The position numbers were made by a program, and so were the translations under genes. The notes below the pieces were generated by a model, which was not told the DNA's origin, did no database searches, and saw only the letters and a list, made by a program, of their open reading frames with translations. Below, in pieces: positions 17,415-42,064 of a stretch of 59,207 bases of DNA. The stretch spans positions 1 to 59,207 of the forward strand of contig JANXPZ010000130.1 of NCBI GenBank assembly GCA_025357055.1, in the 5' to 3' direction. Positions within the stretch are counted from its first letter, which is position 1; every line of letters starts with the position of its first letter. Source of the stretch: Candidatus Eiseniibacteriota bacterium (lineage in GTDB: Bacteria; Eisenbacteria; RBG-16-71-46).

Positions 17415-18021
17415 CGGAACCTCCGGGTGGGGGCGGCTCATCGGGCGCGACCGCGCGGCGGCCCAGCTCGTAGCAGCGGCGGCAGCGAGCCTCGTAGAGA
17501 TCGGCGCCCCCCACCACGACGCGGGCCGTGCGGCGCTTCTTGCGGTAGCTGCGGTTGGCGGGGTTGCCGCACACCACGCAGATGGCGAGCGTCTTGGTGA
17601 TGTATTCGGCGATGGCGAGCAGTTGCGGCATGGGCTCGAAAGGCTTGCCGAGGTAGTCCTGGTCGAGCCCGGCCACGATCACGCGCTTACCGCGCCGGGC
17701 CAGGCGCTCGCAGACCTTGACCAGGTCGGGGCCGAGGAACTGGCCCTCGTCGATGCCGATGACCTGGGCCTCGTGGGCGTAGCGGAGCACGTCCTTCGCG
17801 GTCTTGACCGCGCGCGAGGGGATGCGCAGCTCCGAGTGAGACACGAGCTGATCGCGTCCGAAACGGTCGTCGATCGAGGGCTTGAAGATGGCGACCCGCT
17901 GGCGGGCGATCTGGGCGCGGCGCAGGCGGCGGATGAGCTCCTCCGTCTTGCCGCTGTACATGCTTCCGACGATCACTTCGATCCAGCCGGAGTTGACGAA
18001 TGCCTGGGTGGGTTCGGTCAT
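17335..18021 (-). CDS. tdk: Thymidine kinase (type II)
   Basis: P-loop [21 protein letters not shown] and Zn motifs AICVVCG / YEARCRRC; low-complexity tail overlaps the BMP gene. Confidence 0.94.
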
Positions 18022-26347: not shown

Positions 26348-26551
26348 GGGGCCGCAGCCCGGCCGGTGTCCGGCCGGACCGTCGACTTTGGTAGCATCGC
26401 GGCCGTTCTGCAGGTAGGATGCCGCTGAACTGCCACGCGCCGGAACCAGGACCTCTCGTCGGGGCGCGTACGGAATGCGACCATCGCCACCGAAGCCCCT
26501 CCGGCCCCGGTGCGCACACATGAAGAGCATGTGATCACAGGGAGGAACCCG

Positions 26552-28792: not shown

Positions 28793-28863
28793 GGGGTAGC
28801 CGGTGATGGTGGTGGGCGAGCGCATGGTGCCTCTGCTCGCCCACCACCATCACTGGCTACCCC
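28793..28863. repeat. Long hairpin A: 29-bp arms (one G.T pair), 13-nt loop GCATGGTGCCTCT
   Basis: Arms 28793-28821 and 28835-28863 checked base by base. Confidence 0.92.
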
Positions 28864-28867
28864 ACGA

Positions 28868-28915
28868 CCTCGGCACCTCTTCAGCACCGCCACCTCGGCA
28901 CTATTCCCTCGGCAC
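28868..28915 (+). repeat. Short direct repeats CCTCGGCAC (x3 plus one variant)
   Basis: Copies at 28868, 28893 and 28907; variant CTTCAGCAC at 28879. Confidence 0.7.
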
Positions 28916-29018
28916 CGCTTTCTGCGGGTTGCCGGATGCCCGGGCGCGTGTTAGTGGTCCGTGACGTGTCTGGATCCCTTCGCATCTGTCGCACCGCGCC
29001 TCTGATCCGGGTCCCGGG

Positions 29019-31007
29019 ATGCTGCTGATCCTCGCCGGCCTGGGGCTGCTCGTGCTCGGCGCCATCGCCTCCCTGATGGCCGCACGCTCGCCGCGCCGGG
29101 CCACGCTCCTGGGCGTGGGCGGCACCATCGCCGGCTGCGCCTGCGCCCTGGTCCCGGTCGTGCGCGTCCTGCTCGGCCACGCCCCCGAGAGCCTGCGGCT
29201 GCCCTGGAGCGTCCCCTTCGGTGTCTTCGCACTTGGCCTGGACGGGCTCTCGGGCTTCTTCCTGCTGCCCATCCTCGCGCTCTCGGCGCTCGCCGCGCTC
29301 TACGGGAGCGAATATCTCGGCGCCTTCCGCGGGCGCGTGGTCCCCGCGCGGGCCTGGCCCTTCTTCGCGCTGCTCGTCGCGGCCATGGCGCTGGTGGTGC
29401 TGGCGCGCAACGGCGTGCTGTTCCTGGTGGCGTGGGAGATCATGTCGCTGGCGGCCTACTTCCTGGTGGTGCTCGAGGACGAGACCCCGGCGGTGCGCTC
29501 CGCGGGCTGGACGTATCTCGTCGCCACGCACCTGGGCACGGCCTTCCTGATCGTGATGTTCGTGGTGCTGGGACATGAGGCGGGCTCGCTCGACTTCGAG
29601 CGCTTCGGCGCCGCCCTGCCGCTCGCCGCCCCGCTGGCCGGCCTGGTCTTCGTCCTCGCGATGATCGGCTTCGGCACCAAGGCCGGCTTCATGCCCCTGC
29701 ACGTCTGGCTGCCCGAGGCGCATCCGGCCGCACCCAGCCACGTCTCCGCCGTGATGTCGGGGGTGATGATCAAGCTCGGCATCTACGGCCTGCTGCGCAC
29801 GCTCACGTTCCTGGGCCCGCCGCCGGCCTGGTGGGGCTGGACGCTGGTGGCCGTCGGACTGACCTCGGGCGTGCTCGGCGTGCTCTTCGCCCTGGCCCAG
29901 CACGACCTCAAGCGGCTGCTGGCCTACTGCAGTGTCGAGAACATCGGGATCATCGCCCTGGGGATCGGCGGGGGTCTGCTCGGCGTGCACCACGGGTCGG
30001 CGGCGCTGGCCGTGCTGGGCTTCGCCGGGGCGCTGCTGCACGTCGTGAACCACGCCCTGTTCAAGGGCCTGCTCTTCCTCGGCGCGGGCGCGGTCGTGCA
30101 CGCCACCGGCACGCGCGAGATGGACCAGCTCGGCGGACTCCTGAAGCGCATGCCGTGGACCGGCTCGCTGTTCGTGGTCGGAGCCGCGGCGATCTGCGGC
30201 CTGCCGCCGCTCAACGGCTTCGCCAGCGAGTTCCTCGTGTTCCTCGGGGCGTACCAGGGCGTGCTGCACCCCGCGGCGGCGGTGGCGGGGCCCGCGCTCG
30301 CCGTGCTGGCCGGGCTCGCGCTCATCGGTGGCCTGGCGGCGGCGTGCTTCGCCAAGGTCATCGGCGTTGTGTTCCTGGGCGAGGCCCGCAGCGGGCACGT
30401 CGCGCAGGCGCACGACCCGGGCACGGCGATGACGCTGCCCATGGTGGTGCTGGCGTCGGGCTGCGTGCTGGTGGGCCTCGCGCCCGTCCTGCTGGTGGGG
30501 CGCATGGGCGGCGCGCTCGAGCCGCTGACGCGGCTGCCGGCGGTGGCGATCGAGCTGGCGCTGGCGCCCGCGTTGCTGCCGCTCCAGTGGATCACGCTCG
30601 CGGCGGCCGTGCTGCTCGCCCTGGTCGGGACGCTCTCGATCTGGCGGCGCCGGCGCCTCGCCGGCCGGCCGGTGCGCGAGGCGCTCACCTGGGATTGCGG
30701 TTACGCCCGGCCCACGCCGCGCATGCAATACACCGGCTCGTCTTTCGTGCGGCCGCTCACGCGGCTCTTCGGCGGGTTCCTGCGCACGCGCACCACGCGG
30801 GTCGCGCCCGTCGGTCCCTTCCCCGGGCCGGCGGCGCTCGCCACCGCGACGCCGGACGTCTTCCGCGACGCGCTCTTCCGCCCCGCGTTCCGCATGGCCT
30901 CCGGGACGCTGGCGAAGCTGCGCTGGCTGCAGCACGGGCGGGTGCAGCTCTACGTCCTCTACATCCTGCTCACGCTGGTCGTGCTGCTGGTGTGGAAGCT
31001 GAGATGA
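29019..31007 (+). CDS. hyfB: Hydrogenase-4 component B-like antiporter-type membrane subunit (Ehr complex)
   Basis: FLVAWEIMS, KAGFMPLHVWLPEAHPAAPSHVSA, LKRLLAYCSVEN, GLPPLNGFASE, TWDCGY. Confidence 0.88.
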   Translation: MLLILAGLGLLVLGAIASLMAARSPRRATLLGVGGTIAGCACALVPVVRVLLGHAPESLRLPWSVPFGVFALGLDGLSGFFLLPILALSALAALYGSEYLGAFRGRVVPARAWPFFALLVAAMALVVLARNGVLFLVAWEIMSLAAYFLVVLEDETPAVRSAGWTYLVATHLGTAFLIVMFVVLGHEAGSLDFERFGAALPLAAPLAGLVFVLAMIGFGTKAGFMPLHVWLPEAHPAAPSHVSAVMSGVMIKLGIYGLLRTLTFLGPPPAWWGWTLVAVGLTSGVLGVLFALAQHDLKRLLAYCSVENIGIIALGIGGGLLGVHHGSAALAVLGFAGALLHVVNHALFKGLLFLGAGAVVHATGTREMDQLGGLLKRMPWTGSLFVVGAAAICGLPPLNGFASEFLVFLGAYQGVLHPAAAVAGPALAVLAGLALIGGLAAACFAKVIGVVFLGEARSGHVAQAHDPGTAMTLPMVVLASGCVLVGLAPVLLVGRMGGALEPLTRLPAVAIELALAPALLPLQWITLAAAVLLALVGTLSIWRRRRLAGRPVREALTWDCGYARPTPRMQYTGSSFVRPLTRLFGGFLRTRTTRVAPVGPFPGPAALATATPDVFRDALFRPAFRMASGTLAKLRWLQHGRVQLYVLYILLTLVVLLVWKLR

Positions 31008-31927
31008 CCGCGCTCGCCGCGCTGCCGCCGCTCTGCGCGCTGGTGCTCGCGCCCCTGCTGCCCGGGATCATCACCCGCACGCGCTGCTGGCTCACCGGGC
31101 GCCGGGGCCCGCCGCTGCTGCAGACTTACACGGACATCGGCAAGCTGCTGGCGAAGGGCGCAGTCTACAGCCGCACCACCACCGCGGTGTTCCGCGCCGG
31201 CCCGCTGGTGGGCCTCGCCGCGGTCGTGACGGCCGCGGCGATGGTGCCCTTCGGCACCGCGGCCGCGCCGCTGGCGTTCCCCGGCGACCTCATCCTGCTC
31301 TGCGGCCTGCTGGCGCTGATGCGCTTCGCCACCGTGCTCGCCGCGCTCGACACCGGCTCGGCCTTCGAGGGCATGGGCGCCAGCCGCGAGGTGCAGTTCG
31401 CCGCCCTCGCCGAGCCCGCGCTGGTGCTGGCGCTGGCGGTGGTCGTGCGCAGCACCGGGAACCTGTCCCTCAGCGGCGCCTTCGGCGCGCTGACGTCCGC
31501 CGCCTGGGCGAGCGAGGGCGCGGCCCTGGTGCTGGTGCTCGGCACGCTGTTCGTGGTCTACCTGACCGAGAACGCCCGCGTGCCGGTGGACGACCCGGGC
31601 ACGCACCTCGAACTGACCATGATCCACGAGGTCATGGTGCTCGACCACGGCGGGCCCGACCTCGGGCTCATCCACTACGCCGCCGCGCTCAAGCTGTGGG
31701 TGCTGGGCGCGCTGCTGGTCGGCGTCGCGCTGCCGGTGCAGGACCTCATGCCCTGGGCGGGGCTGCTCGTCGCGCTCGCGGGGATGCTCGTGCTGGCGGT
31801 GCTGGTCGGTGTGGTGGAGACGGTGATGGCGCGGCTGAAGCTGCTGCGCGTGCCGCAACTGCTGGTCGGCGCGACCGCGCTCGCGGTGCTGGCGGTGGTG
31901 CTGGTGATGCGGGGCCGGGTCGGATGA
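31004..31927 (+). CDS. hyfC: Hydrogenase-4 component C / NuoH-like membrane subunit
   Basis: GRRGPPLLQ, DTGSAFEGMGASRE, ENARVPVDDP.THLELTMIHEVM; ATGA overlap. Confidence 0.9.
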   Translation: MTALAALPPLCALVLAPLLPGIITRTRCWLTGRRGPPLLQTYTDIGKLLAKGAVYSRTTTAVFRAGPLVGLAAVVTAAAMVPFGTAAAPLAFPGDLILLCGLLALMRFATVLAALDTGSAFEGMGASREVQFAALAEPALVLALAVVVRSTGNLSLSGAFGALTSAAWASEGAALVLVLGTLFVVYLTENARVPVDDPGTHLELTMIHEVMVLDHGGPDLGLIHYAAALKLWVLGALLVGVALPVQDLMPWAGLLVALAGMLVLAVLVGVVETVMARLKLLRVPQLLVGATALAVLAVVLVMRGRVG

Positions 31928-32105
31928 ACGAGGGCCGCGGGATGAAGGACTCGGCCGCGTCGGGCCCTGCTCGCGGCCACGGGGCTCGAGGCGGTGGCGT
32001 GCGCCTTCGTCAAGATCGGCATGCTCTGGATGCGCCGGTCGTGAGGTCGCCTGCCATGCACGGGACGCCATCGGGGCCGGGGCTGAGAGCCGACAGGAGC
32101 CACCC

Positions 32106-32783
32106 ATGCAACTGACCCTCCGCGAAGCGACCACCTACCTCGGGGTCAACGAGGACACGGTGCGGCGCTGGATCAAGAGCCGTGGGCTGCCGGCGCACCG
32201 CGTGAACGAGCGGCTCATGCTCAACGCGATCGAGCTCTGGGAGTGGGCGACCGAGAACGGCGTCGCGGTCTCGCGCGACCTGCTCGAGCGGGAGCGCGGC
32301 TCGCCCGAGTCGGTCCCACCGCTCGGCGACATGCTCGAGGCCGGGGGCATCCACCACGACGTCGGCGGCGAGGACCGCTCGGCGGTGCTGCGCGAGGTGG
32401 TGGCGCGCCTGCCGCTGCCGCCCGGCACGGATCGCGCGTTCGTCGAGGCGGTGCTCGAAGCCCGCGAGGCGATGGGCTCGACCGGGATCGGCGCCGGCAT
32501 CGCCATCCCGCACGTGCGCAACCCGCTGCTGCTGGGCGCGGGCGAGCCGCGCGTGATGCTCTGCCTGCTGCGCCACCCGATCGAGTTCGACGCGGTGGAC
32601 GGGCTGCCGGTCTACGCGCTCTTCACCGTGGTCAGCTCCACGGTGCCGGCGCACCTGAAGATCCTCGCGCGGCTGGGCTTCGCGCTCCACGACCCGGAAC
32701 TGCGCGGGCTGCTGCGGGACCGCGCCCCGGCCGCCGACCTCCTGTCGCGCGTGCGCGCGATCGACGCGCCGAAGGGGGGCTGA
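32106..32783 (+). CDS. Excisionase-type HTH fused to a PTS EIIA (PtsN/fructose-type) domain
   Basis: LTLREATTYLGVNEDTVRRWIK..LPA (HTH_17-like), then RE.MGSTGIG.GIAIPH (phospho-His), DG.PV and HLKILA. AGGAG RBS. Confidence 0.88.
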   Translation: MQLTLREATTYLGVNEDTVRRWIKSRGLPAHRVNERLMLNAIELWEWATENGVAVSRDLLERERGSPESVPPLGDMLEAGGIHHDVGGEDRSAVLREVVARLPLPPGTDRAFVEAVLEAREAMGSTGIGAGIAIPHVRNPLLLGAGEPRVMLCLLRHPIEFDAVDGLPVYALFTVVSSTVPAHLKILARLGFALHDPELRGLLRDRAPAADLLSRVRAIDAPKGG

Positions 32784-32785
32784 GC

Positions 32786-33427
32786 ATGGAACGGCTCGGC
32801 GACGCGCTCCTGCTGCTGGTGCTGCTCACGGACCTCGCGCTGCTGGTCACCGACCGGCTGAGCGGCTCCATCCGGCTGGTCGCGCTCCAGGGCGTGCTGC
32901 TCGGGCTGGCGCCGCTCACCCTGGCGCACGGCGCCTCGCTCCACCTGGCCGCCATCGTGGCCGGGACGATCGCCATCAAGGCGGTGGTGCTGCCGCGCAT
33001 CCTGCTGTGGGCGATCCGTGAGGCGGAGGTGCGGCACGAGCGCCAGCCCTCGATCGGCCATCTGCCCTCGCTGCTGCTGGGGCTGGCGGTCACGGGCATC
33101 GCCTTCCTCGTCGCGGCCCGCCTGCCGGCGCTGCCGGGGAACTCGCTGCCGCTGCTGATCCCGGTCGCGCTGTCCACGCTGATGATCGGCTTCCTGCTGC
33201 TCACCAGCCGGCGCAAGGCGCTCTCGCAGGTGCTGGGCTACCTGGTGCTCGAGAACGGGATCTACCTCTTCGGGCTCACGCTGGCCGACCGCCTGCCGCT
33301 GCTGGTCGAGATGGGCGTGCTGCTGGACGTGTTCGTGGGCGCGTTGATCATGGGTCTCGTGGTCTTCCAGATCCAGCGCGAGCTCGAGACGCTCGACTCG
33401 CGCGAACTGTCGCAGCTCACCGACTGA
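32786..33427 (+). CDS. hyfE: Hydrogenase-4 component E-like membrane subunit
   Basis: ALQG, IKAVVLP, SQVLGYLVLENGIY, EMGVLLDV. Confidence 0.87.
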   Translation: MERLGDALLLLVLLTDLALLVTDRLSGSIRLVALQGVLLGLAPLTLAHGASLHLAAIVAGTIAIKAVVLPRILLWAIREAEVRHERQPSIGHLPSLLLGLAVTGIAFLVAARLPALPGNSLPLLIPVALSTLMIGFLLLTSRRKALSQVLGYLVLENGIYLFGLTLADRLPLLVEMGVLLDVFVGALIMGLVVFQIQRELETLDSRELSQLTD

Positions 33428-34869
33428 TGCTCCTGCCCGCGCTGGTCCTGGTCCCGCTGCTCGGCGCGCTCGCCGCGTACCTCGACCGCTCGACCGCACG
33501 GCGCTCGCTCTGGATCGTCGTCTGCGCCGTGCTCCACTTCGGCCTGGTGGCGCTGGCCTGGTGCCTGCGGCCGGCGCCCGCGGGCCCCGGCTGGCTGGCG
33601 TTCGATCCGCTCGGCGGGCTGGTGCTCACGCTCACGAGTGTCGTGTTCCTCGCGGTCGCGCTCTACTCGGTGGGCTACCAGCGCCACGAGCGGCTGCGCG
33701 GGGGGCGGGCGTACGCGAGCTGCCTGCTCGCCTTCCTGGCCGCCGCGACGGTGATCACGCTGACCCGGCACTTCGGGCTGCTCTGGGTGGCGATGGAAGC
33801 CACCACGCTCGCGACCGCGCCGCTCATCTACGATCCCGCGGACCGTCGCTCGCTCGAGGCGGTCTGGAAGTACCTGGTGGTCTGCTCCGTGGGCATCGCG
33901 GTCGCGCTGCTCGGCATCTTCTTCCTCGCCACCGCGCAGATCGCGGGGGGTGCCGCCACCGGGCGCCCGCTCCTGCTGGAGGACCTGCTGGCCGCGGGCC
34001 CGCTCCTGCACCCGGCCTGGCTGCGGGGCTCGTTCGTCTTCGTGCTCATCGGCTTCGGCACCAAGATGGGCCTGGCCCCGATGCACACCTGGCTGCCCGA
34101 CGCGCACGGCGAGGCGCCCTCGCCGATCTCGGCGCTGCTCTCGGGGGCGCTGCTGAACCTGGCGTTCCTGGCGATCCTGCGGGAGCTGGCGGTGCTGCGG
34201 GCGGCGGGCCAGGGTGACTTCGCGGGACCGCTGCTGGTGGGCTTCGGACTGTTCTCCGTCGCGGTGGCGGCCGCGTTCCTGTTCGGGCAGGGCAACTACA
34301 AGCGCATGCTGGCCTACTCGAGCGTGGAGCACATGGGGATCCTCGCGGTGGGCGCGGGGCTCGCCGGGGTCGCGACCTACGGCGCGTTGCTGCACGTGCT
34401 GAGCGCCTCGCTCGCCAAGGCGTTGCTCTTCCTGGTCGCGGGCAACGTGTGGCAGGCCACCGGCACCAAGCGCACGCGCGAGGTCACGGGCCTGGCGCGC
34501 CGGCTGCCGGTGAGCGCCGCACTGCTGGTCGCGGGGTTCCTGGCCATCAGCGGCTCGCCGCCCTTCGGCCCGTTCCTGAGCGAGTTCACCCTGCTCACGG
34601 GCGCGGTGCGCTCGGGTGCCACCGGCACGGTCGTGGCGCTGCTGACGCTGCAGGCGCTGATCTTCATCTCGATGGGCTCGGCCGTGCTCGGCATGGTGCT
34701 GGGGCGCCCGGCCGCGGGGACCACGCCCGCGCCGCGTGAGAGCCTCTGGCTGGTCGCGCCGCCGGCGGCGCTGCTCGCGCTCGTGCTGCTGCTGGGCGTC
34801 TGGCTCCCGGAGGGCCTGCGGCAGGCGCTGGCCGCGGCCGCCGTGGGGATCGGGGGCACGGCGCCATGA
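33427..34869 (+). CDS. hyfF: Hydrogenase-4 component F-like antiporter-type membrane subunit
   Basis: LWVAMEATTL, SLEAVWKY, GTKMGLAPMHTWLPDAHGEAPSP, KRMLAYSSVEHMG. Confidence 0.9.
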   Translation: MLLPALVLVPLLGALAAYLDRSTARRSLWIVVCAVLHFGLVALAWCLRPAPAGPGWLAFDPLGGLVLTLTSVVFLAVALYSVGYQRHERLRGGRAYASCLLAFLAAATVITLTRHFGLLWVAMEATTLATAPLIYDPADRRSLEAVWKYLVVCSVGIAVALLGIFFLATAQIAGGAATGRPLLLEDLLAAGPLLHPAWLRGSFVFVLIGFGTKMGLAPMHTWLPDAHGEAPSPISALLSGALLNLAFLAILRELAVLRAAGQGDFAGPLLVGFGLFSVAVAAAFLFGQGNYKRMLAYSSVEHMGILAVGAGLAGVATYGALLHVLSASLAKALLFLVAGNVWQATGTKRTREVTGLARRLPVSAALLVAGFLAISGSPPFGPFLSEFTLLTGAVRSGATGTVVALLTLQALIFISMGSAVLGMVLGRPAAGTTPAPRESLWLVAPPAALLALVLLLGVWLPEGLRQALAAAAVGIGGTAP

Positions 34870-36380
34870 GACTTCCCGGGCCCGAGGGCTTCCGCAACCG
34901 GCGCAGCATCCCGTGGGCGGAGGTGCCGTGCCGCGAGGTGGAGGAGTTCCGCGCCGAGGTCGCGGGCGCGATCGCCGAAGGGGCGCGGCTGGTCTCGTTC
35001 TTCGGCATGCCCGAGGACGACGCGCGCACGCGCCTGGTCGCCGTGCTCGCCGACGACGATCGGGCGACGCTCGGGGTGAGCAGCGCGGTGGTCGGTGCGG
35101 GCTATCCCGCGCTGACGCCCGAATGCCCGCAGGCCCACCTCTTCGAGCGTGAGATCGCCGAGCAGTGCGGCGTCATGCCCGAGGGACACCCGTGGCTCAA
35201 GCCGGTGCGCCGCCACCCGCCCGACCACCTGCCGTCCGCGCGGCGCGCGGCGGAGGCGGATCGCGAGGCCTACCCGTTCTTCCAGGTGACGGGGGAGGAG
35301 GTGCACGAGGTGGCGGTGGGGCCGGTGCACGCGGGCATCATCGAGCCCGGGCACTTCCGCTTCCAGGCCCACGGCGAGGACGTGCTGTTCCTCGAGATCG
35401 TGCTGGGCTACCAGCACCGCGGGGTCGAGCGCCTGCTCGAGACGCTGCCGCCCGCGCAGGCCATGCTGGTCGCGGAGTCCATCGCCGGCGACACGGCGAT
35501 CGGCCACGCCGAGGCGTTCTGCGGCGCGTTCGAGGCGCTGTCGCGCTGCCGCAAGCCGCCGCGGTCGCAGTCGGTGCGCGGTTGCGCGCTGGAGCTCGAG
35601 CGGCTGGCGAACCACATCGGTGACCTGGGCGCGCTCGCCGGCGACGTGGCCTTCACCCCGACGGCCGCGATCTGCGGGCGCGTGCGCGGCGACGTGCTCA
35701 ACCTGCTGCTGGCGCTCTCGGGCAACCGCTTCGGGCGTGGCCTGGTGCGCCCGGGCGGCGTGGGATTCGATCTGACGGCGGCGCTGGCCGGGGAGCTGCG
35801 CGCGCGCCTCACCGCGATCGCCGCGGAGTTCGAGCAGGCGGCGGGGCTCTTCTTCGGGAGCGAGTCGGTGCAGGGGCGGATCGAGGGCACGGGCGTGGTG
35901 CCGGCCGCGAGCTGCCGGGAGCTGGGCTTCGTCGGCCCCACGGCCCGCGCCTCGGGCGTGGCGCGCGACGTGCGCCAGGACCATCCCTGGGGCCTCTATC
36001 GCTTCGCCCACATCCCCACCGCGATCGAGACCACGGGCGACGTCGCGGGGCGCGCGATGGTGCGCGTGATCGAGGCGCGGCGCTCCTTCGGGTTCCTGCA
36101 GGAGCAGCTGGCGGCGCTGCCGTGGGGCGGCGAGCTGCGCGTCATTCCCGGAGCGCTGGTGCCCGGCGAACTGGTGGTGGCCCTGGCGGAGGGCTGGCGC
36201 GGCGAGATCGCGCACGTCGCCGTGACCGACGAGGGCGGGCGCGTGCGGCGCTGGAAGGTCACGGACCCGTCGTTCCACGACTGGACCGCGCTGGCCGTGG
36301 CGATGGCCGGCACGCCCATCTCGGACTTCCCGCTCTGCAACAAGAGCTTCAACCTGTCGTACGCCGGCCATGACCTGTAG
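34866..36380 (+). CDS. ehrL: HycE/HyfG-like (NuoC+D) large subunit lacking NiFe-binding cysteines (Ehr large subunit)
   Basis: VGPVHAGIIEPGHFRF, LGYQHRG and EGWRGE are present. ESIAGD replaces RxCGxC and PLCNKSFNLSY replaces DPCxxC. Confidence 0.88.
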   Translation: MRLPGPEGFRNRRSIPWAEVPCREVEEFRAEVAGAIAEGARLVSFFGMPEDDARTRLVAVLADDDRATLGVSSAVVGAGYPALTPECPQAHLFEREIAEQCGVMPEGHPWLKPVRRHPPDHLPSARRAAEADREAYPFFQVTGEEVHEVAVGPVHAGIIEPGHFRFQAHGEDVLFLEIVLGYQHRGVERLLETLPPAQAMLVAESIAGDTAIGHAEAFCGAFEALSRCRKPPRSQSVRGCALELERLANHIGDLGALAGDVAFTPTAAICGRVRGDVLNLLLALSGNRFGRGLVRPGGVGFDLTAALAGELRARLTAIAAEFEQAAGLFFGSESVQGRIEGTGVVPAASCRELGFVGPTARASGVARDVRQDHPWGLYRFAHIPTAIETTGDVAGRAMVRVIEARRSFGFLQEQLAALPWGGELRVIPGALVPGELVVALAEGWRGEIAHVAVTDEGGRVRRWKVTDPSFHDWTALAVAMAGTPISDFPLCNKSFNLSYAGHDL

Positions 36381-36455
36381 ACGCGGAGGAACTGCGGACG
36401 TCCTGCGTCGCGGGCCGGGAGCGCGAAGGGCGCGGTGTGCGCAGCGGGGGTCGTC

Positions 36456-37229
36456 ATGTTGAAGTACCTGCTCGGCCGGCTGCGCCGGGGCAGCCACACG
36501 CTGCCCTACCCGCGCACGGTCCCCACGCTGCCCGAACGCTACCGCGGCCGGCCGGTGCTCGATCGCACGCTCTGTCCGGACGGTTGCAGGGCCTGTGCGG
36601 CCGCGGCGCCCACCGGCTTCCTGCGGCTGGACGCCGGCGGCGTGCCCGCGCTGGACCTGGGCGCCTGCCGCTTCAGCCCGGAGGAGTCCGCTGCGTGCCC
36701 GGCCAGCGCGATCCGCTTCAGCGGTGAGCACCGCATGGCCACCTCCGCGCGCGAAGCGCTCGTCACACCGACGGGCGAGGTCGAGCTGGCGCACGCGCTG
36801 GAGGCTTCGGCGCGCCGGCTCTTCGGGCGCTCGCTCCGGTTGCGCTCGGTGGTGGCGGGCAGTTGCGGAGGCTGCGAGCCGGACATCGCGGTGCTGGGCA
36901 CCGTGGTCTTCGACCTCGCGCGCTTCGGCATCCAGTTCGTGGCCTCGCCGCGACACGCGGACGGCATCGTCGTCACGGGCGTGGTCAACCCGAACATGCG
37001 CCTGGCGCTCGAGAAGACCTGGCAGGCCGTGCCCGAGCCACGGCTCGTCATCGCGGTGGGCGCCTGCGCCCTCTCGGGCGGGCCGTTCGCGGCGAGCCTG
37101 CAGGGCGGGACGGGCGTGCCGGCGGAACTGCCGGTGGACCTGTGCGTGCCGGGCTGCCCGCCCCATCCGCTCACGCTGCTGGACGGGCTGCTGCGCCTGC
37201 TGGGCAGGCTCGAACGTGGAGAGCGCTGA
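36456..37229 (+). CDS. ehrS: Degenerate ferredoxin domain fused to a NuoB/HyfI-like Fe-S small subunit
   Basis: YRGRP, partial Cys motifs (CPDGCRAC..; GACRF..ACP), then GSCGGCE, SPRHAD, GACA and PGCPPHP. Confidence 0.85.
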   Translation: MLKYLLGRLRRGSHTLPYPRTVPTLPERYRGRPVLDRTLCPDGCRACAAAAPTGFLRLDAGGVPALDLGACRFSPEESAACPASAIRFSGEHRMATSAREALVTPTGEVELAHALEASARRLFGRSLRLRSVVAGSCGGCEPDIAVLGTVVFDLARFGIQFVASPRHADGIVVTGVVNPNMRLALEKTWQAVPEPRLVIAVGACALSGGPFAASLQGGTGVPAELPVDLCVPGCPPHPLTLLDGLLRLLGRLERGER

Positions 37230-37241
37230 GGCAGCGCCCGC

Positions 37242-37889
37242 TCAGCGCGTCGTGACCACCTCGACGCCGCGCTCGCGCAGCAACTCGCGGATCTTGGTCT
37301 TCACCAGGTCGATGGCCACCTTGTTGTGGCCGCCCTCGGGGATGATGACGTCGGCCCAGCGCTTCGACGGCTCCACGAACTGCATGTGCATGGGCCGCAC
37401 GCTCTCCTCGTACTGACGGATGATGCTGTCCACCGAGCGTCCGCGCTCCACCAGGTCGCGCCGCAGGCGCCGGATGAAGCGCACGTCGGCGTCCGCGTCG
37501 ATGAACAGCTTGATGTCCATCAGCTCGCGCAGCTCGGCGTCGGTGAAGATGAGGATGCCCTCGAGCACGATGATGAGGTGCTCGCCGATGTGGCGGGTCT
37601 CGTCCAGACGGCGGTGGTCGGTGTAGTCGTAGATGGGCTGTTCGATCGATTCCCCCGACAGCAGCTCGCGGATGTGGCGCGTGAGCAGTCCGTTGTCGAA
37701 GGCGTCGGGATGATCGAAGTTGCGGGATTCGCGGTCGAGGAAGGGGATGTTCTCGAGGTTCTTGTAGTAGGAGTCCTGGTCGATGATGACGACTCTTCCG
37801 GACCCCAGGTCGCGCACGATGTTCCGCGCGACCAGTGTCTTGCCGGAACCCGACCCCCCGGCGATCCCGATGAGGATTCGTCGCACCAT
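37242..37889 (-). CDS. udk: Uridine kinase
   Basis: IAGGSGSGKT, QDSYY, NFDHPDAFD, LEGIL, RRLRRDLVERGR, FVEPSK..AD.IIP. Confidence 0.95.
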   Translation of the reverse strand: MVRRILIGIAGGSGSGKTLVARNIVRDLGSGRVVIIDQDSYYKNLENIPFLDRESRNFDHPDAFDNGLLTRHIRELLSGESIEQPIYDYTDHRRLDETRHIGEHLIIVLEGILIFTDAELRELMDIKLFIDADADVRFIRRLRRDLVERGRSVDSIIRQYEESVRPMHMQFVEPSKRWADVIIPEGGHNKVAIDLVKTKIRELLRERGVEVVTTR

Positions 37890-37898
37890 CGGGACCGC

Positions 37899-37928
37899 AA
37901 GTTAGCATCCGGCTCGCGTGGGGGTCAA
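37899..37928 (-). promoter_or_regulatory. Sigma-70-like promoter of udk (TTGACC-18-TAACTT with TGn), ATG 9 nt downstream
   Basis: Read on the minus strand; no SD. Confidence 0.5.
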
Positions 37929-37965
37929 CGAGCCGCCGCCGGCGCCGGGTGGCCGGACTGGCGCG

Positions 37966-39321
37966 TCAGGGCTTCGGCAAGAGGAGCAGGGTCGCCCGGT
38001 GCCTCGGATCCCGCAGCCAGTTCGCCCAGAAGGCGAACTCCGGCGACACGCCGACGTCGAAGCGGCGGCGGTATTCGGCCCAGAACACCTCGTTCCCCCA
38101 GAGCGCCTGGGAGGCGAGCGAGGTGCAGAGGAAGGTGAGCGCCGCCGGGTCGCGCCGCACGCCGTCGAGGAGCGCCCGGGGCATCGGCCCGCCCATCATC
38201 CAGAGCAGGTTGTGGCGGATGCTGCCGTAGTTCTCGCGTTCGATGATCCCGGCGCGCAGCTCCTCGACGGCCCCTTGCAGGACCCCCTCGGTGCTCCGGG
38301 GGTCGGGGGCTGACAGCGGGAGGGTGGGCGGGTAGAAGCGCGCGAAGCCGGGATCCTCCAGCAGCGAGTACTGGAAGCGCGTGGTGAGCGGGGCGGCGGG
38401 CGGGCCCCAGGACTGCTTGACGAACCCGCCCAGCACGAGCAGGGCCATGTGGAACGACGGGTGGAGGGTGTCCGAGAGCGCCGGCGCCATGAGGCCCACG
38501 ACGGCCACCGGCGCGTCCGTTCCGGACGGTCTGCGAACGACCGTGACCGAGTCGAGACGCGAAGCCGGGAGGGCGGGGAGGCGCTCGCCCGCGGGCAGGG
38601 CGCCGAACTCGCTGTCGATGATAGATCGCAGGTCCAGGCCCGAGAGGTCGCCGGCCAGCACGAGCACGCCGTTCGCCGGGACGTAGGCCCGGGCGATGGC
38701 CTGCTGCACGCTGGCGGGTGTCTCGCGGTCCAGGCCCCTGGCCGCGGCCAGCGCGGCGATGGCCTCCTGGTCCAGGCCGCGGGCATACTCGCGCACCTGC
38801 CAGTAGAGGGTCTGGTCCGCGGTGCCGGAGTATCTCTCTCCCAGCGTCCGGCGCACCGTCACGAGCGCGGCTTGAAGGTCTGCGTCCGTCACCGTCACCC
38901 CGCGCATCCGCCCGGCGATCTGGTGCAGCACCCCGGGGAATTGAGCGGTCGTGGCGGTCTCGCTGAACAGGGTCTGGCGGCGGCTCACGCGCATGCTCCA
39001 GCCCTGCGGCCGAAGGCTCTCCATCTCGTCGCGCGTGCGCTCGGGAGTGTCGCCTGCCGGGGCGGTGAAGGCCACCTCGGCCAGCAGCGAAGCCAGTCCG
39101 GGCCGGTCGGCGGGATCGTGATCCTGCCCGATACGGTAGCCCCAGGCGATGGAGATCGCGCGGGCGCCGGACACGTCGCGCGCCACGACCTCGAGGCCGT
39201 TGGGCAGCGTCCAGCGCTCCACGGTCGTGCCGTCCTCGAGCGGGAGAGGCTCGGCCAGGGTGGTCCGCGCCGCGAACAGCGCGCACAGGATCAGCAGGGT
39301 GCGGATCGCATTTCGGCTCAC
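37966..39321 (-). CDS. Secreted peptidase M16 (insulinase)-like protein, probably inactive
   Basis: Signal peptide, TLPNGLEV, DP..RPGLASLLAEV (HxxEH absent), YVPAN.VLVLAGD. GGAG RBS before GTG 39321. Confidence 0.72.
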   Translation of the reverse strand: MSRNAIRTLLILCALFAARTTLAEPLPLEDGTTVERWTLPNGLEVVARDVSGARAISIAWGYRIGQDHDPADRPGLASLLAEVAFTAPAGDTPERTRDEMESLRPQGWSMRVSRRQTLFSETATTAQFPGVLHQIAGRMRGVTVTDADLQAALVTVRRTLGERYSGTADQTLYWQVREYARGLDQEAIAALAAARGLDRETPASVQQAIARAYVPANGVLVLAGDLSGLDLRSIIDSEFGALPAGERLPALPASRLDSVTVVRRPSGTDAPVAVVGLMAPALSDTLHPSFHMALLVLGGFVKQSWGPPAAPLTTRFQYSLLEDPGFARFYPPTLPLSAPDPRSTEGVLQGAVEELRAGIIERENYGSIRHNLLWMMGGPMPRALLDGVRRDPAALTFLCTSLASQALWGNEVFWAEYRRRFDVGVSPEFAFWANWLRDPRHRATLLLLPKP

Positions 39322-39473
39322 TTGGACTCCTCGGCTGGGACGGCCCGGGCCGCCAGGACGATCGTGGACGCGTCCCCATTCTAGAGGCTCGGGGCGCATC
39401 GCGCATCCCGGGCGGGGATCCGCGGCCGCCCCTGGTACGCGTCCGGTGTCGCGCGCCAGGCCGCGCCGTGCGC

Positions 39474-39502
39474 TTGACCCCTCCGGTCGCGCTCCCTAGA
39501 CT
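39474..39502 (+). promoter_or_regulatory. Sigma-70-like promoter of rpiB-add (TTGACC-17-TAGACT), ATG 9 nt downstream
   Basis: Read directly; no SD. Confidence 0.55.
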
Positions 39503-39511
39503 CGCGTTCCC

Positions 39512-40087
39512 ATGCACGAATACGACGAGTCCGAGGTCCGCCGCCTGGTACGCGAGGCCGTGGACCGCTCGCTGGGCCCGGTGCCCGCCCCCGCCGCGCG
39601 ACCTGCGAGCCCCGCGAGCCCGTCCCCCTCGATCCGCCGGGTCGCCCTCGGCTCCGATCATGGCGGATTCGAGCTCAAGGAGGTGCTCCGTCAGTACATC
39701 GCGGAGGAGCTGGGCTGGGAGGTCCACGACTGCGGCACGCACTCCACCGACACGGTGGACTATCCCGACTACGCCGCCGCGGTGGCACGCGAGGTCGCGG
39801 CCGGCCGTTGCAGCCTCGGCATCGTGGTGGACGCGGCGGGCATCGGCTCGGCGATGGCGGCGAACAAGATCGCCGGCGTGCGCTGTGCCGTGGGCCACGA
39901 CGACCGCACCGTGCTCAACAGTCGCGAGCACAACGACGCCAACATGCTCTCGCTCGGCGCGCGCATCGTGAACCGCGGGCTCGCGCAGCGGCTCGCGCGC
40001 CTGTTCCTCACGACTCCCTTCGCCGGCGGTCGCCACGAGCGCCGGGTGCAGAAGATCATGGCGCTCGAGCGCGGCTCCGGCCGGTAG
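39512..40087 (+). CDS. rpiB: Ribose-5-phosphate isomerase B family protein with an N-terminal extension
   Basis: LGSDHGG, VDYPDYA, GIGSAMAANKIAGVR, SREHNDANML, FAGGRHERRV. The usual CGTG reads DAAG. Confidence 0.88.
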   Translation: MHEYDESEVRRLVREAVDRSLGPVPAPAARPASPASPSPSIRRVALGSDHGGFELKEVLRQYIAEELGWEVHDCGTHSTDTVDYPDYAAAVAREVAAGRCSLGIVVDAAGIGSAMAANKIAGVRCAVGHDDRTVLNSREHNDANMLSLGARIVNRGLAQRLARLFLTTPFAGGRHERRVQKIMALERGSGR

Positions 40088-40125
40088 CGGCGCCCCGGAC
40101 CCGACACCCCGACCCCCCGAGGCCC

Positions 40126-41202
40126 ATGCGAATCACCGAGCGAGTCATCCGGCGGCTGCCCAAGACCGACCTGCACTGCCACCTCGACGGCTGCCTGCGC
40201 CCGAGCACCGTCCTCGAGCTGGCCCAGGCGCAGGACGTGAAGCTCCCGACCTACAGCCTGACGCAGCTGACCAAGGTGCTGAAGGCGGGCAAGCGCACGC
40301 GCAATCTCGGTGAGTACCTCAAGATCTTCGACCTCACGCTGGCCGTGATGCAGGAGAAGGAGGCGCTCTACCGGATCGCCTACGAGCTGGCCGAGGACGC
40401 CGCTGCGGAGAACGTCTGCCACCTCGAGGTGCGCTATTCGCCGATCCTGCACCGCAAGCGGAAGCTCAGCTTCGAGGACATCGTGGACACGGTCATCGCC
40501 GGTCTGCACGACGCGGGCAGCAAGTTCGGCATGACCACGGGCGTGATCATCTGCGGGATCCGCTCGATGGACCCGAAGTTCTCGCTGGCGCTGGCCGAGC
40601 TGGCCGTGGCCTACAAGGGCAAGGGCGTGCTGGCCTTCGATCTGGCGGGGCAGGAGAAGGACTATCCGGCCAAGGCGCACCGCGCGGCGTTCGAGCTGAT
40701 CCTGAAGAACAACATCAACTCGACCGTGCACGCGGGCGAGGCGTTCGGCCCGGCCTCGATCTCGCAGGCGCTCCACTACTGCGGGGCGCACCGCATCGGG
40801 CACGGCACGCTGCTGCTCCAGGACCGCGACCTGATGCAGTACGTCAACGACCACCGCATCCCGCTCGAGATGTGCCTGACCTCGAACCTGCAGACCGGCG
40901 CGGTGCAGAACATCAAGGAGCATCCGCTCGGCATGTACTTCCGCCAGGGCCTGCGCGTCACGGTGAACACCGACAACCGGCTCATGTCGGACACCACCGT
41001 GACGGACGAGATCAAGCTCGCAGCCAGCGCGTTCCGCCTCAGTCCTTACGAGGTCAAGCGGCTCATCATCAACGGCTTCAAGAGCTCCTTCCTGCCCTAC
41101 GCCGCCAAGGCGCGCCGTCTGCGCGAGGTGAACCTCGAGACGGACCGGATCTTCATGGAGGAGTTCCCGGACGAGTACGATCGGCGCCTGACGAGCTTCT
41201 GA
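40126..41202 (+). CDS. add: Adenosine deaminase
   Basis: LPKTDLHCHLDG, FDLAG.E, TVHAGE, RIGHG, LEMCLTSN, VNTDN. Confidence 0.93.
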   Translation: MRITERVIRRLPKTDLHCHLDGCLRPSTVLELAQAQDVKLPTYSLTQLTKVLKAGKRTRNLGEYLKIFDLTLAVMQEKEALYRIAYELAEDAAAENVCHLEVRYSPILHRKRKLSFEDIVDTVIAGLHDAGSKFGMTTGVIICGIRSMDPKFSLALAELAVAYKGKGVLAFDLAGQEKDYPAKAHRAAFELILKNNINSTVHAGEAFGPASISQALHYCGAHRIGHGTLLLQDRDLMQYVNDHRIPLEMCLTSNLQTGAVQNIKEHPLGMYFRQGLRVTVNTDNRLMSDTTVTDEIKLAASAFRLSPYEVKRLIINGFKSSFLPYAAKARRLREVNLETDRIFMEEFPDEYDRRLTSF

Positions 41203-41238
41203 GGGCTCCCGCTCGCGGGCCCGGTGCGCCCGGCCCGC

Positions 41239-41308
41239 CGGGGAGTCTGAACCGGCCAGGGCCGAGCAAGGCGCCATACGCTCGGCCCTGGCCGGTTCAG
41301 ACTCCCCG
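41239..41308. repeat. Long hairpin B: perfect 29-bp arms, 12-nt loop AAGGCGCCATAC
   Basis: Arms 41239-41267 and 41280-41308 are exact reverse complements. Confidence 0.93.
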
Positions 41309-41358
41309 ACTACGCTTGCCGGGTGACAGAGCCAGCCGAACCCTCCGCACGCCGAAGA

Positions 41359-41432
41359 GCTGAGCCCCTGCCATACGGGAAGGTCGAGCGTACGGCGCCT
41401 TGCTCGGCCTTCCCGTATGGCAGGGGCTCAGC
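41359..41432. repeat. Long hairpin C: 31-bp arms (one T.G pair), 12-nt loop GTACGGCGCCTT
   Basis: Arms 41359-41389 and 41402-41432; the loop is the reverse complement of the hairpin B loop with one change. Confidence 0.93.
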
Positions 41433-41441
41433 GGGCCTCTT

Positions 41442-41517
41442 CCGGGCACTCTGCGGCGCGTCCGCGGCTCAGCGGGGCGATCCCGGGCACTTCGGAGCTG
41501 CGTCCGCGGCTCAGCGG
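41442..41517. repeat. Imperfect tandem duplication (CCGGGCACT..GCGTCCGCGGCTCAGCGG) including the stop codon of the DUF4337-like gene
   Basis: 18-bp exact core at 41458-41475 and 41500-41517. Confidence 0.75.
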
Positions 41518-42050
41518 CCGAACAGCAGGAACCCGTTGGCGAAGTACCAGATCCCGATCGAGCCGGACACGAGGCCGAGCAGCCAGAGCGGTTTCTTCTT
41601 GAGCAGCGCGGCCACGGACGAGAGCAGGATGGCGACCTGCAGGTAGATGACCGCCATCCCGAAGGTCTGGGAGTGTACGGTCGCGTCGTCGCGCACGGCC
41701 TCGAAGCGCTTCGCCTCGGCCTGGATCTCCGCCTTCTCCTTCTCGTAGCGCGCGAGCTTCTCGCGATAGCCAGCGAGGCGCTTCTCGACCTGGTCCCGCA
41801 CCGCCACCGTCCGCCGTCCGCCGTCCGCCTGCTGTCCCAGCTCGAGCTCCTCCTTCTGGATCTCGTAGAGGTAGCCCTTGATGCTCTTGGACTGGTAGTA
41901 GGCCCACTGGTTGGCGGCCTTCGTCTGGCTGAGCACGGAGCGCGTCGAGTACGAGCCGCCCTTGAAGGTCGAGAGCGTGGCGCACACCGCCAGGATCACG
42001 GTGGTGAGCGCCAGCCAGTTGAGCCAGGGTTCCTTCTTCTCGTCGGCCAT
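41511..42050 (-). CDS. DUF4337-like membrane protein
   Basis: ALTTVILAVCA TM, AANQWAYYQSKSIK, coiled coil, LQVAILLSS and a further TM. Confidence 0.75.
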   Translation of the reverse strand: MADEKKEPWLNWLALTTVILAVCATLSTFKGGSYSTRSVLSQTKAANQWAYYQSKSIKGYLYEIQKEELELGQQADGGRRTVAVRDQVEKRLAGYREKLARYEKEKAEIQAEAKRFEAVRDDATVHSQTFGMAVIYLQVAILLSSVAALLKKKPLWLLGLVSGSIGIWYFANGFLLFGR

Positions 42051-42064
42051 GGGTCCGTTCCTGG

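Follow-up and report, generated by a model that had tools for sequence, protein, structure and literature searches.

The three long hairpins in the window, by which we mean the whole 59,207-nt stretch of DNA analysed here, are real and belong to a repeat family that has so far been found only in genomes of uncultured Eisenbacteria. We put at roughly even probability the explanation that these hairpins are lineage-specific interspersed palindromic elements of Candidatus Eisenbacteria, REP-like or miniature-mobile-like in kind. By analogy, the family appears closest to the REP-type palindromic repeats of other bacteria; the element is probably mobile, and its apex is best read as the recognition determinant. 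The first-pass annotation of this DNA had described a dispersed family with a fixed apex and covarying arms, and this description stands: the family is represented at 37 Eisenbacteria loci, and 25 of the 30 stem pairs in the family alignment are changed on both sides.

The hairpins of the window and their family

All three window copies are intergenic and lie at the coordinates that the first-pass annotation had given; they share an apex whose search pattern occurs three times in the window and never in 100 dinucleotide-preserving shuffles. They are the only stems of at least 20 bp in the window, the next longest having 18 bp, and on either strand their predicted folds have energies between -67 and -76 kcal/mol (z between -10.5 and -12.6; Table 1). 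Copies 2 and 3 form an inverted pair between convergent genes, with their 5' ends toward each other, and copy 2 belongs to the GTAG-tag subfamily, its tag (plus-strand 41309-41314) lying immediately beyond the stem's 5' base. With its filters off, the covariance model R1 recovered only these three copies from the window, the next best hit scoring 19.8 bits inside kdpD. Two other candidates were rejected: 17616-17638, an apex-only match in coding sequence (9.6 bits), and the palindrome at 3222-3411, which is without the apex and has no counterpart in any locus.

Table 1. Positions of the hairpins, their neighbouring genes and the empty site in the window
Feature	Position	Strand	Remarks
Hairpin copy 1	28793..28863	+	Type A arms, G-rich 5' arm; arms 28793-28821/28835-28863, 29 nt, 97% complementary; model R1 87.8 bits on +, 55.1 on -; MFE -68.7 kcal/mol, z -10.8
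Copy 1 apex	28817-28839	+	Identical to the majority apex of Eisenbacteria copies
Hairpin copy 2	41239..41308	-	Apex reads on the minus strand, 41263-41284; arms 41239-41267/41280-41308, 29 nt, 100% complementary; model R1 78.5 bits on -, 57.0 on +; MFE -75.9 kcal/mol, z -12.6
Hairpin copy 3	41359..41432	+	Apex 41385-41406; arms 41359-41389/41402-41432, 31 nt, 97% complementary; model R1 72.0 bits on +, 51.2 on -; MFE -72.3 kcal/mol, z -12.2
Glycogen-debranching-enzyme gene	26429-28648	+	One neighbour of hairpin 1
Mrp/Nuo-type antiporter gene	28965-31004	+	Other neighbour of hairpin 1
Adenosine deaminase gene	39478-41199	+	Flanks hairpins 2 and 3, convergent with the DUF4337 gene
DUF4337 gene	41514-42068	-	Flanks hairpins 2 and 3, convergent with the adenosine deaminase gene
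Empty site	37227..37244		12 nt separating the stop codons of a convergent gene pair

A single scan of 185,579 species genomes, which used the exact apex pattern only, returned 44 loci. Candidatus Eisenbacteria or Eisenbacteria-like MAGs account for 37 of them (36 are labelled Candidatus Eisenbacteria, and L036 was included as an orthologue of one of these); the 37 loci hold 42 apex matches, 36 with complementary arms of at least 14 bp, that is, full hairpins. Throughout about 150 kb of locus flanks, every hairpin with a stem of at least 20 bp bears the family apex. The element had been called undescribed, and our searches agree: the whole window had no match in Rfam 15 at gathering thresholds, and a literature search found no paper describing this hairpin family. 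In E-value mode, positions 41150-41530 matched nothing but generic models of microRNA-precursor hairpins, with scores of 15-38 bits that fell far short of their cut-offs of 59-124, and distant blastn searches of plasmid and phage collections with hairpin 1 gave only chance matches of 26-38 nt (E 0.06-0.7).

At the foot of the element lies a short base, in many cases asymmetric, which carries a purine-rich 5' tag or an internal loop; above it come a main stem of 14-26 bp whose middle is free to vary and a fixed apex stem of 5-6 bp. Across the family the arms measure 14-27 bp besides this apex stem; in the window the units measure 70-74 nt with arms of 29-31 bp. The 8-10 bp directly below the apex form a hypervariable stretch. 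As judged by eye, an unpaired A stands beside the stem in 24 of 39 copies and a G-N-A-G-like tag is present in about half. The apical loop of 11-13 nt has an invariant GGYGCC core, much of the apparent apex invariance being forced by the exact search pattern. A small pattern-independent sample comprises four extra full-length copies with variant apexes (one with a single change, two with 2-3 changes and one that lacks 5 nt of the loop); several half copies, likewise free of search-pattern bias, have an apex with 0-2 changes. The left arms of copies other than type B average 48% identity, against 38% when shuffled, and some pairs reach 75-100%. Outer stems are only partly conserved across the family, and subfamilies have a common outer-stem consensus and purine-rich 5' tags; the C-rich 3' tails are also common across genomes. 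The earlier statement that the arms differ strongly is true of the three window copies but has to be tempered for the family as a whole, in which subfamilies are recognisable.

The reverse complement of the majority loop resembles a ribosome-binding site followed by ATG; since ATA or GTA stands at that place in window copies 2 and 3, the idea of a Shine-Dalgarno sequence with a start codon was dropped. By eye, the loop and internal loop fitted none of the consensus sequences of a sigma-54 promoter, a K-turn or a CsrA site.

Arm covariation, and mobility or host selection as possible explanations

Paired cells make up 90.9% of the family alignment. In shuffles the figure is 61.7%, and none of 500 came up to that of the family; sliding the partner brings it to about 40%. 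Non-Watson-Crick pairs account for 6% of the 856 core pairs, with G.T outnumbering A.C by 23 to 11 on the apex-sense strand, an excess that is a weak sign of constraint at the level of a strand-specific RNA or of a single strand. Among three orthologous pairs of copies, 19 of 59 stem base pairs carry compensated changes and 3 uncompensated ones; 12 of the 19 are transversion-type, with no route through a G.T intermediate. The compensated rate per pair in these three comparisons (0.27-0.36) is at or above the distance at 4-fold sites (0.21-0.32), which under strong GC3 bias underestimate neutral divergence. Compensation at about the synonymous rate points to homogenisation of the arms by template switching, a reading that rests on the three orthologous pairs; the arm changes might also have come from a second insertion at the site or from ectopic conversion there. 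The first-pass proposal that arms are homogenised by fold-back copying fits these figures, and template switching is documented to homogenise inverted-repeat arms and invert spacers in the cases described in two earlier papers (PMC8604942; PMC8794818).

The mechanism that we propose has the element spreading within genomes by means of a putative trans-acting enzyme that would read the apex and the base, its substrate most plausibly being the folded single strand. Judging from the rates, the arms would stay perfectly complementary in situ through template switching within the palindrome, so that a mutation arising in either arm would end up compensated in the other; pairing would therefore survive while the stem drifted at about the neutral rate, and the whole element could be inverted. 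For the host, the likely side effect would be a 3' RNA hairpin, double-stranded and very stable whichever way the copy is oriented, which might act as an exonuclease barrier, an RNase III substrate or a terminator lacking a U-tract. A more specific form of this proposal, which we consider unlikely, is a new miniature mobile element in which the apical loop of the folded single strand would be recognised, and perhaps nicked, by an enzyme new to such repeats, with a self-templating stem drifting neutrally as a perfect duplex. A bolder version would give the hypervariable stretch below the apex a use of its own, such as supplying a repertoire of processed double-stranded RNAs.

Somewhat unlikely, in our estimate, is that the element does not move at all and is a structured element under host selection, with a lineage-specific protein binding the loop as RNA or as cruciform DNA. 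The long stem would then be a terminator, 3'-end stabiliser or RNase III site, and the arm variation ordinary compensatory evolution. Most copies are old, to judge from the mean arm identity of 48%, and the near-invariance of their apex could equally mean host-level selection on each copy; the apex is kept in the window and in no fewer than five species-level genomes, among which flanking intergenic DNA is barely alignable, and type B copies retain an asymmetric internal loop between variable stems. The excess of G.T over A.C favours host selection too, as does the position of the copies, which start a few to tens of nucleotides past stop codons. According to a crude GC3-based gene caller, 19 of 46 matches lie in convergent, 18 in co-directional and 5 in divergent contexts, with 4 undetermined. 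A strand bias relative to replication was rejected, as copy strand showed no link with local GC skew (Mann-Whitney p 0.99, 35 loci).

Several observations count against host selection. Orientation to the upstream gene is variable, with 11 sense and 7 antisense copies in co-directional contexts and hence no orientation rule with respect to transcription. Between the orthologues L027 and L036, the whole element is inverted at the same site inside one operon, between a binding-protein gene and a permease gene. Presence and absence differ, with few sites common to related genomes: only 2 of the 11 loci of OY970178.1 have a pattern-matching orthologue in CAVQXP01. The same composite, one half copy plus one full copy with 100% identical arms, stands at two places about 356 kb apart in one genome (L017 and L023). 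The hairpins have no U-tract. Population-genetic theory holds that selection on two independent mutations gives compensation far below the synonymous rate, and the compensated substitutions seen here, at about that rate, are far above the expectation.

The interest of the family lies in a multi-copy palindrome whose recognition sequence is split from its structure, the loop being fixed, the stem sequence free and the pairing perfect. If more sites confirm the rate result, the family would lend itself well to measurements of intra-palindrome template switching in bacteria and would bear on the old compensatory-evolution problem of how long stems remain perfect. For Candidatus Eisenbacteria, which as a phylum is known from metagenomes only, it provides a first marker of the repeat-element kind and a handle for finding the putative loop-reading protein. 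Should it be merely another REP-like family, it would still have annotation value, marking gene ends and hot spots of rearrangement and IS insertion.

Neighbouring insertion sequences and the empty site

The hairpins might instead be the ends, relics or dedicated targets of an IS of the IS110 or IS256 family, which we judge very improbable. Transposase genes adjoin 2 of the 37 loci: at L002 an IS256-family transposase (PF00872) lies a few nucleotides or less from the stem base, and at L019 an IS110-family transposase (PF01548 and PF02371) begins about 235 nt from the hairpin. Insertion of IS110-family elements into REPs is on record (PMC1525189, PMC12288879). However, the two neighbouring IS are from different families, and no transposase was found within 2 kb at the other 35 loci or at the window copies. 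The orthologue of L002, L005, has the hairpin without the IS; the hairpin is therefore either older than the IS or unconnected with it. The neighbours of the copies are housekeeping genes. No Y1/HUH transposase domain was detected in the 31 window ORFs or in 122 ORFs within 2 kb of copies, which for the window bears out the earlier remark that it holds no cognate enzyme.

The first-pass annotation had also raised the possibility that arms derive from pre-existing target sequence, and had called for a comparison of empty and filled sites in relatives. One such pair was available, the empty site of the window and its orthologous site in L010 (OY970178.1), where about 195 nt comprise one half copy and one full copy; L010 positions 1-1908 and 2118-4023 align to window positions 35266-37227 and 37239-39144 at 87% identity. 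This single comparison shows no recognisable target-site duplication or precise insertion boundary, and about 100 nt are extra beyond the element.

Mobility of the apex alone, with one arm being pre-existing target DNA and the other a fold-back copy of it, would account for the unrelated look of the arms of the three window copies and for half copies made of the 5' arm and apex (L010, L012, L017 and L023). It is nonetheless improbable in the extreme. Nothing at the window's empty site, the one testable site, resembles either arm of the filled L010, and across genomes the arms, which travel with the apex, have subfamily consensus sequences, 5' tags and 3' tails in common. The half copy in L010 repeats the last ~15 nt of the upstream gene and is therefore a local tandem duplication, not a precursor; tandem half copies including flanking host DNA occur in L010 and L012. 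Moreover, L035, a deletion chimera of two L013 copies whose arms no longer pair, was not rebuilt into a palindrome. Chimeric reads can produce perfect palindromes, but the chance of an assembly or amplification artefact is negligible given that the family is present in at least five independent assemblies, one a complete chromosome, with diverged arms at orthologous sites and degenerate copies.

Comparison with known systems

The GTAG-tagged REPs, as described in one survey, are units of 20-40 bp with a stem of 6-13 bp and, in more than 90% of members, an unpaired terminal GTAG or close variant; they are intergenic, mostly after genes, between unidirectional or convergent ORFs, and have a cognate Y1/HUH transposase (RAYT) gene that is typically flanked by repeats (PMC3733652). 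The Eisenbacteria hairpins resemble the REPs and BIMEs of that account in being multi-copy intergenic palindromes mainly behind genes in co-directional or convergent contexts, in subfamilies distinguished by complementary stem changes, in the unpaired purine-rich tag at one end, and in inverted dimers, in clusters repeated together with flanking DNA and in IS inserted alongside (PMC3733652). They differ in a longer stem (25-32 bp overall), in having their maximum of conservation in the 22-23 nt apex where REPs have it in stem and tag, and in a degenerate tag, 6 of 39 copies having a strict GTAG at the stem base or adjoining it. Inverted pairs of hairpins are also a feature of REPINs, but the partners in REPINs are described as near-identical and folding together (PMC3116915, PMC3337134), whereas the partners here (window copies 2 and 3, L003, L041) have unrelated arms, and identity with REPINs was rejected; the 5' ends face each other in five of five inverted pairs. 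Copy number is modest, the two best-sampled genomes containing 14 and 22 exact matches to the apex, and no RAYT gene was seen within 2 kb of any copy. The contrast with REPs drawn in the first-pass annotation was overstated, given that position after genes, inverted dimers, reiterated clusters and adjacent IS are all in common.

MITEs end in conserved terminal inverted repeats, with a target-site duplication on either side; in the hairpins the outer stems are conserved only in part, and the one empty/filled comparison showed no recognisable duplication. Integron attC sites combine conserved outer R and L boxes and a variable centre with adjoining cassettes and an integrase; the hairpins show the opposite conservation pattern, housekeeping neighbours and no integrase among the window ORFs and those within 2 kb of copies, and are not attC sites. 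Nor are they canonical intrinsic terminators, in which a GC-rich hairpin is directly followed by a U-tract: there were no terminator-like sites around either locus, and the 3' tails are C-rich. The rolling-circle Rep origins of geminiviruses and circoviruses have a nonanucleotide hairpin loop in which an HUH enzyme nicks; they likewise set a conserved loop on a lineage-variable stem, but occur once per replicon rather than dozens of times per chromosome, and no Rep gene was seen beside the Eisenbacteria copies.

Short inverted repeats shaped by template switching, as treated in the two papers on that process, have perfect arms despite divergence, multi-base compensated changes and inter-arm inversion, all as here; theirs is a general mutational process and not an element, and leaves the conserved apex and the dispersal unexplained (PMC8604942, PMC8794818). 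TRIT of Mycobacterium tuberculosis and the Correia repeats of Neisseria, dispersed 3'-UTR hairpins proposed as RNase III substrates, offer a precedent for host selection; they are conserved over their whole length (PMC13714241). All three are lineage-specific dispersed hairpins in high-copy families without canonical U-tract termination (PMC13714241), and, while RNase III-processed repeats are transcribed and have paired cleavage sites in the stem, the predicted fold of the Eisenbacteria hairpins supplies just the prerequisite of a perfect duplex of at least 29 bp on either strand.

A hairpin family of Eisenbacteria

The three hairpins of the window are members of a family with a restricted distribution. 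An inverted-repeat search recovered all three with the coordinates and arm lengths that the first-pass annotation had read from the sequence alone (see table), and the apex pattern that it had described has exactly three matches in the window against none in 100 dinucleotide-preserving shuffles. Across the family the apex is a stem of 5-6 bp with a loop of 11-13 nt. A looser apex 14-mer with two mismatches allowed is at chance level in the window (16 matches vs 17.3 expected). In a scan for near-perfect hairpins these are the only stems of at least 20 bp in 59 kb, and each strand of the three copies folds into a single long hairpin (-67 to -76 kcal/mol, z -10.5 to -12.6).

A single scan with the exact apex pattern of a genome collection covering 185,579 species, to which the window does not belong, returned 44 loci (numbered with the prefix L below). 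Of these, 36 are labelled Candidatus Eisenbacteria (MAGs OY970178.1, CAVQXP01, JAXDBZ01 and CAVZLN01), and L036, labelled "uncultured bacterium", is orthologous to an Eisenbacteria-labelled locus, giving 37 Eisenbacteria or Eisenbacteria-like loci. The other seven (Thiocapsa, three orthologous ones from Phenylobacterium, Actinomycetota, Acidobacteriota and one uncultured bacterium) are without long complementary arms and are taken as chance or unrelated matches; the Phenylobacterium MAG loci (L011, L016 and L038) are 93-95% identical to one another, and their 23-mer fitting the apex pattern may be a chance match or a distant relative. The 37 loci hold 42 apex matches, 36 of them with complementary arms of at least 14 bp, the remainder being two tandem half copies (a 5' arm and apex without a complete 3' arm) in L012, one chimera (L035) and three arm-poor apexes. 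The arm-poor apexes, with complementary arms of 1-4 bp, may be what is left of copies that decayed or were rearranged. In roughly 150 kb of locus flanks every hairpin with a stem of at least 20 bp bears the family apex. One segment of the window is 87% identical to L010 of OY970178.1, indicating that the window comes from a relative of the organisms that carry these loci.

In the window, a covariance model built from 39 copies (R1) recovers no copies besides the three (72-88 bits; next best 19.8 bits); among the loci it detects four more full-length copies (in L024, L015, L017 and L034), whose apexes have 1-3 bases changed or a 5-nt deletion. Such a model and a search for further copies had been proposed as checks in the first-pass annotation; the pattern scan extends the family beyond the window, to 36 full hairpins in 37 loci, and the model adds the four with variant apexes. 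No Rfam family matches the hairpins, and a search of open-access papers and bioRxiv for Eisenbacteria palindromes and for REPs with a conserved loop and variable stem found no published description of such a family.

Coordinates of the hairpins and of other features in the window and at the matched loci
Feature	Position	Strand	Remarks
Window copy 1	28793-28863	+	arms 29 nt, 97% complementary
Window copy 2	41239-41308	-	arms 29 nt, 100% complementary
Window copy 3	41359-41432	+	arms 31 nt, 97% complementary
Window, second palindrome	3222-3411		arms 37 nt, 92% complementary; 82-nt centre containing two small hairpins
Window, third copy of that palindrome's right arm	3385-3411
Window, segment aligned with L010	35266-39144
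Window, long ORFs	14423-15325, 37969-39495, 53640-55973, 57642-59204		coding-type GC3; no Pfam at E <= 1e-5
L012, tandem array	1950-2220
L010, one and a half copies	1905-2055
L004, arm-poor apex	1994-2015
L022, arm-poor apex	2001-2023
L037, arm-poor apex	2001-2023
L002, insert	660-1975		1.3 kb, IS256-family transposase (Mutator-type, PF00872)
L019, transposase gene	557-2046		IS110 family (PF01548 + PF02371)

The second, different palindrome of the window is flanked by a branched-chain amino-acid permease gene and by a gene on the minus strand that ends near 3448. The region around it (3215-3425) folds at -152 kcal/mol (z -8.9), and it has no Rfam match, no family apex and no match among the fetched loci. 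Apart from the long ORFs listed, the rest of the window is of housekeeping type: kdpA/kdpC/kdpD/kdpE, hydrogenase/Mrp-type complex genes, ABC transporters, an MprF-like lysyltransferase and a TonB-dependent receptor.

Anatomy, pairing and compensated change

An apex-anchored alignment of 39 copies showed that the arms are related and fall into three types. Most copies are of type A: their 5' arm is rich in G and has a recognisable consensus in its outer part, about 8-10 bp in the middle are hypervariable, and the apex is adjoined by GGG or GGC. In type B (L007, L008, L015 with a second copy, L020, L027, L032, L033 and L036) the outer stem measures 11 bp and the inner stem, which varies, 14 bp; the two are separated by a conserved internal loop that is asymmetric, with 5 nt in the 5' strand and 3 nt in the 3' strand. 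Type C (window copy 2, L029, L034 and L042) carries GTAG immediately outside the 5' base. A strict GTAG stands at the stem base of 6 of the 39 copies, an unpaired A directly before the stem in 24 (counted by eye), and the 3' tail is C-rich and partly conserved. Since apex orientation goes with these asymmetric ends, the whole unit has polarity. Left arms outside type B have a mean identity of 48% vs 38% when shuffled, with some pairs at 75-88% and those of L017 and L023, from one genome, identical. Hence the statement that the outer arms differ strongly between copies holds for the three window copies but needs qualifying family-wide, where the arms share a type consensus. That the apex hardly varies among the 36 copies is a consequence of searching with the exact pattern; in a sample free of this bias (the four variant-apex copies and several half copies with 0-2 changes) the apex changes far less than the arms. 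The loop hexamer GGTGCC is retained in the three model-found copies without the deletion, and is GGCGCC in window copies 2 and 3.

The two arms covary. Standard pairs make up 90.9% of the cells of the alignment, as against 61.7% in shuffles, none of 500 of which reaches the observed value, and about 40% when the partner is slid by 1-3 columns; changes on both sides occur in 25 of 30 pairs (316 cells). The core stems comprise 856 pairs: 805 Watson-Crick, 23 G.T, 11 A.C and 17 other mismatches. The rarity of G.T fits a palindrome kept as DNA on both strands better than a wobble-tolerant RNA stem, and the surplus of G.T over A.C (23:11) hints weakly at a preferred strand.

To follow how the arms stay complementary, we compared them position by position in three orthologous pairs with both sites filled. 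Among 59 stem base pairs, 37 are identical, 19 compensated (changed on both sides and paired in both genomes) and 3 otherwise different; 12 of the 19 compensated changes are of transversion type (e.g., C:G to G:C), without a wobble intermediate. Change per pair amounts to 0.27, 0.35 and 0.36, next to 4-fold-degenerate distances of 0.21, 0.21-0.22 and 0.32 in the flanking genes, which GC3 bias makes underestimates. By population-genetic theory, two independent mutations whose mismatched intermediate is selected against are expected to be fixed far more slowly than changes at neutral sites. Copying of one arm from the other predicts a roughly neutral per-site rate, which matches the one observed. 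Template switching between short inverted-repeat arms is documented (PMC8604942, PMC8794818) as homogenising arms, producing multi-base compensated changes and inverting the spacer. The three pairs thus suggest that the arms are homogenised by template switching, and fold-back homogenisation, one half of the first-pass interpretation, fits the compensated rate. Replacement of a copy by another at the same site is also a possible source of the compensated changes.

Turnover and genomic position

All-against-all blastn of the loci and the window provided five orthologous comparisons, in which gain or loss, inversion and duplication of copies were observed. Two stop codons that stand 12 nt apart in the window are separated in L010 by about 195 nt, made up of a half copy (5' arm and most of the apex), a full copy and about 70 further nt. 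The final ~15 nt of the upstream gene recur in diverged form ahead of the half copy, which is therefore a local tandem duplication; the empty window site contains nothing similar to either L010 arm. L013 has two tandem copies, and L035 a single apex flanked by the first copy's 5' arm and the second copy's 3' arm, unpaired: L035 is a deletion between two such tandem copies. In L027 and L036 the entire unit, including the internal loop, is inverted at the same spot between a binding-protein gene and a permease gene, an inversion for which template switching would account. L018 and L031 are both filled, with an additional degenerate apex fragment upstream in L031, as are L002 and L005, of which L002 alone has a transposase-bearing insert, whose distance from the hairpin's 5' base is at most a few nt. 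In L019, an intact hairpin lies about 235 nt from the start of an IS110-family gene, the far end of which adjoins the stop codon of a gene for Lon protease; in this IS family the non-coding leader is the place of the bridge RNA.

L012 is a tandem array with units of about 85 nt (spacer, 5' arm, apex and 6 nt of the 3' arm), and L017 and L023, about 356 kb apart, share a composite of a half copy and a full copy. The half copies of L010, L012, L017 and L023 always consist of 5' arm and apex and lie 5' of a full copy, with breakpoints at varied positions inside or just past the apex. Among the CAVQXP01 loci, pattern-matching orthologues exist for only 2 of the 11 loci of OY970178.1. These observations as a whole show that sites turn over, that copies are duplicated to distant places and that the element tends to rearrange at its apex.

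By GC3 frame plots and Pfam all three window copies are intergenic. Copy 1 is preceded, 142 nt away, by a glycogen-debranching-enzyme gene and followed by an Mrp/Nuo-type antiporter gene of the same strand. An adenosine deaminase gene and a DUF4337 gene converge on copies 2 and 3, which begin 37 and 79 nt past the respective stop codons. Neither a U-tract terminator nor a sigma-70 pattern accompanies the window copies. By a crude GC3-based gene caller, 46 matches comprise 19 in convergent, 18 in co-directional, 5 in divergent and 4 in undetermined contexts; against an expectation of about 1:2:1 for convergent, co-directional and divergent intergenic classes, this is an excess behind gene ends. 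Copies stand behind genes in either orientation (11 sense and 7 antisense in co-directional contexts), and their strand is unrelated to local GC skew. In each of the five inverted pairs (window, L003, L041, L015 and L034) the 5' ends face each other (two-sided p about 0.06).

Nature of the element and its relation to known repeats

We give about an even chance to the hairpins being a family of palindromic elements of Eisenbacteria that is REP-like and probably mobile. On this model a trans-acting protein would read the apex and base, template switching would homogenise the arms, and the effect on the host would be that of a very stable 3' hairpin. Retention of the apex in copies with drifted stems could reflect replicative selection, as proposed for REPINs, or selection at the level of the host. 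The latter is the core of the main rival, a purely host-selected protein-binding hairpin, which is weakened by the free orientation of the copies, the turnover of their sites and the rate of compensated change, and which we consider possible but rather unlikely. IS insertions adjoin REPs (PMC1525189, PMC12288879), as they do the present family; it is improbable that the hairpins are themselves IS ends or IS targets. The other half of the first-pass interpretation, that the arms were copied from target DNA, is contradicted at the single testable site (window/L010) and by the arm consensus, and is very improbable. The finding is real, beyond chance, and the probability of an assembly or amplification artefact is very low.

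The closest described kind is the REP/BIME group, including the GTAG- and CGTC-tagged repeats (PMC3733652). Our family has the genomic habit of these repeats and, like them, sub-families distinguished by complementary changes in the stem, a purine-rich tag at one end, dimers in inverted orientation, and clusters that are reiterated along with the DNA beside them; GTAG-REPs are defined there as 20-40 bp long, with stems of 6-13 bp and a GTAG tag in >90%. The present units are longer and rarely carry the strict tag, and their best-conserved part is a large apex and not the stem. No RAYT gene was seen near the copies, among 122 flanking ORFs and the 31 window ORFs, the latter in line with the first-pass remark that the window holds no cognate enzyme. 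For these reasons we do not file the family as a member of the GTAG-REPs. The general category, interspersed palindromic repeats behind genes, is already familiar; notable to specialists are the inverted conservation pattern and the compensated stem evolution at a neutral rate. Like the TRIT and Correia repeats (PMC13714241), the family is a lineage-specific dispersed 3' hairpin, known here from DNA alone, and it appears to work like a GTAG-REP though outside that definition.
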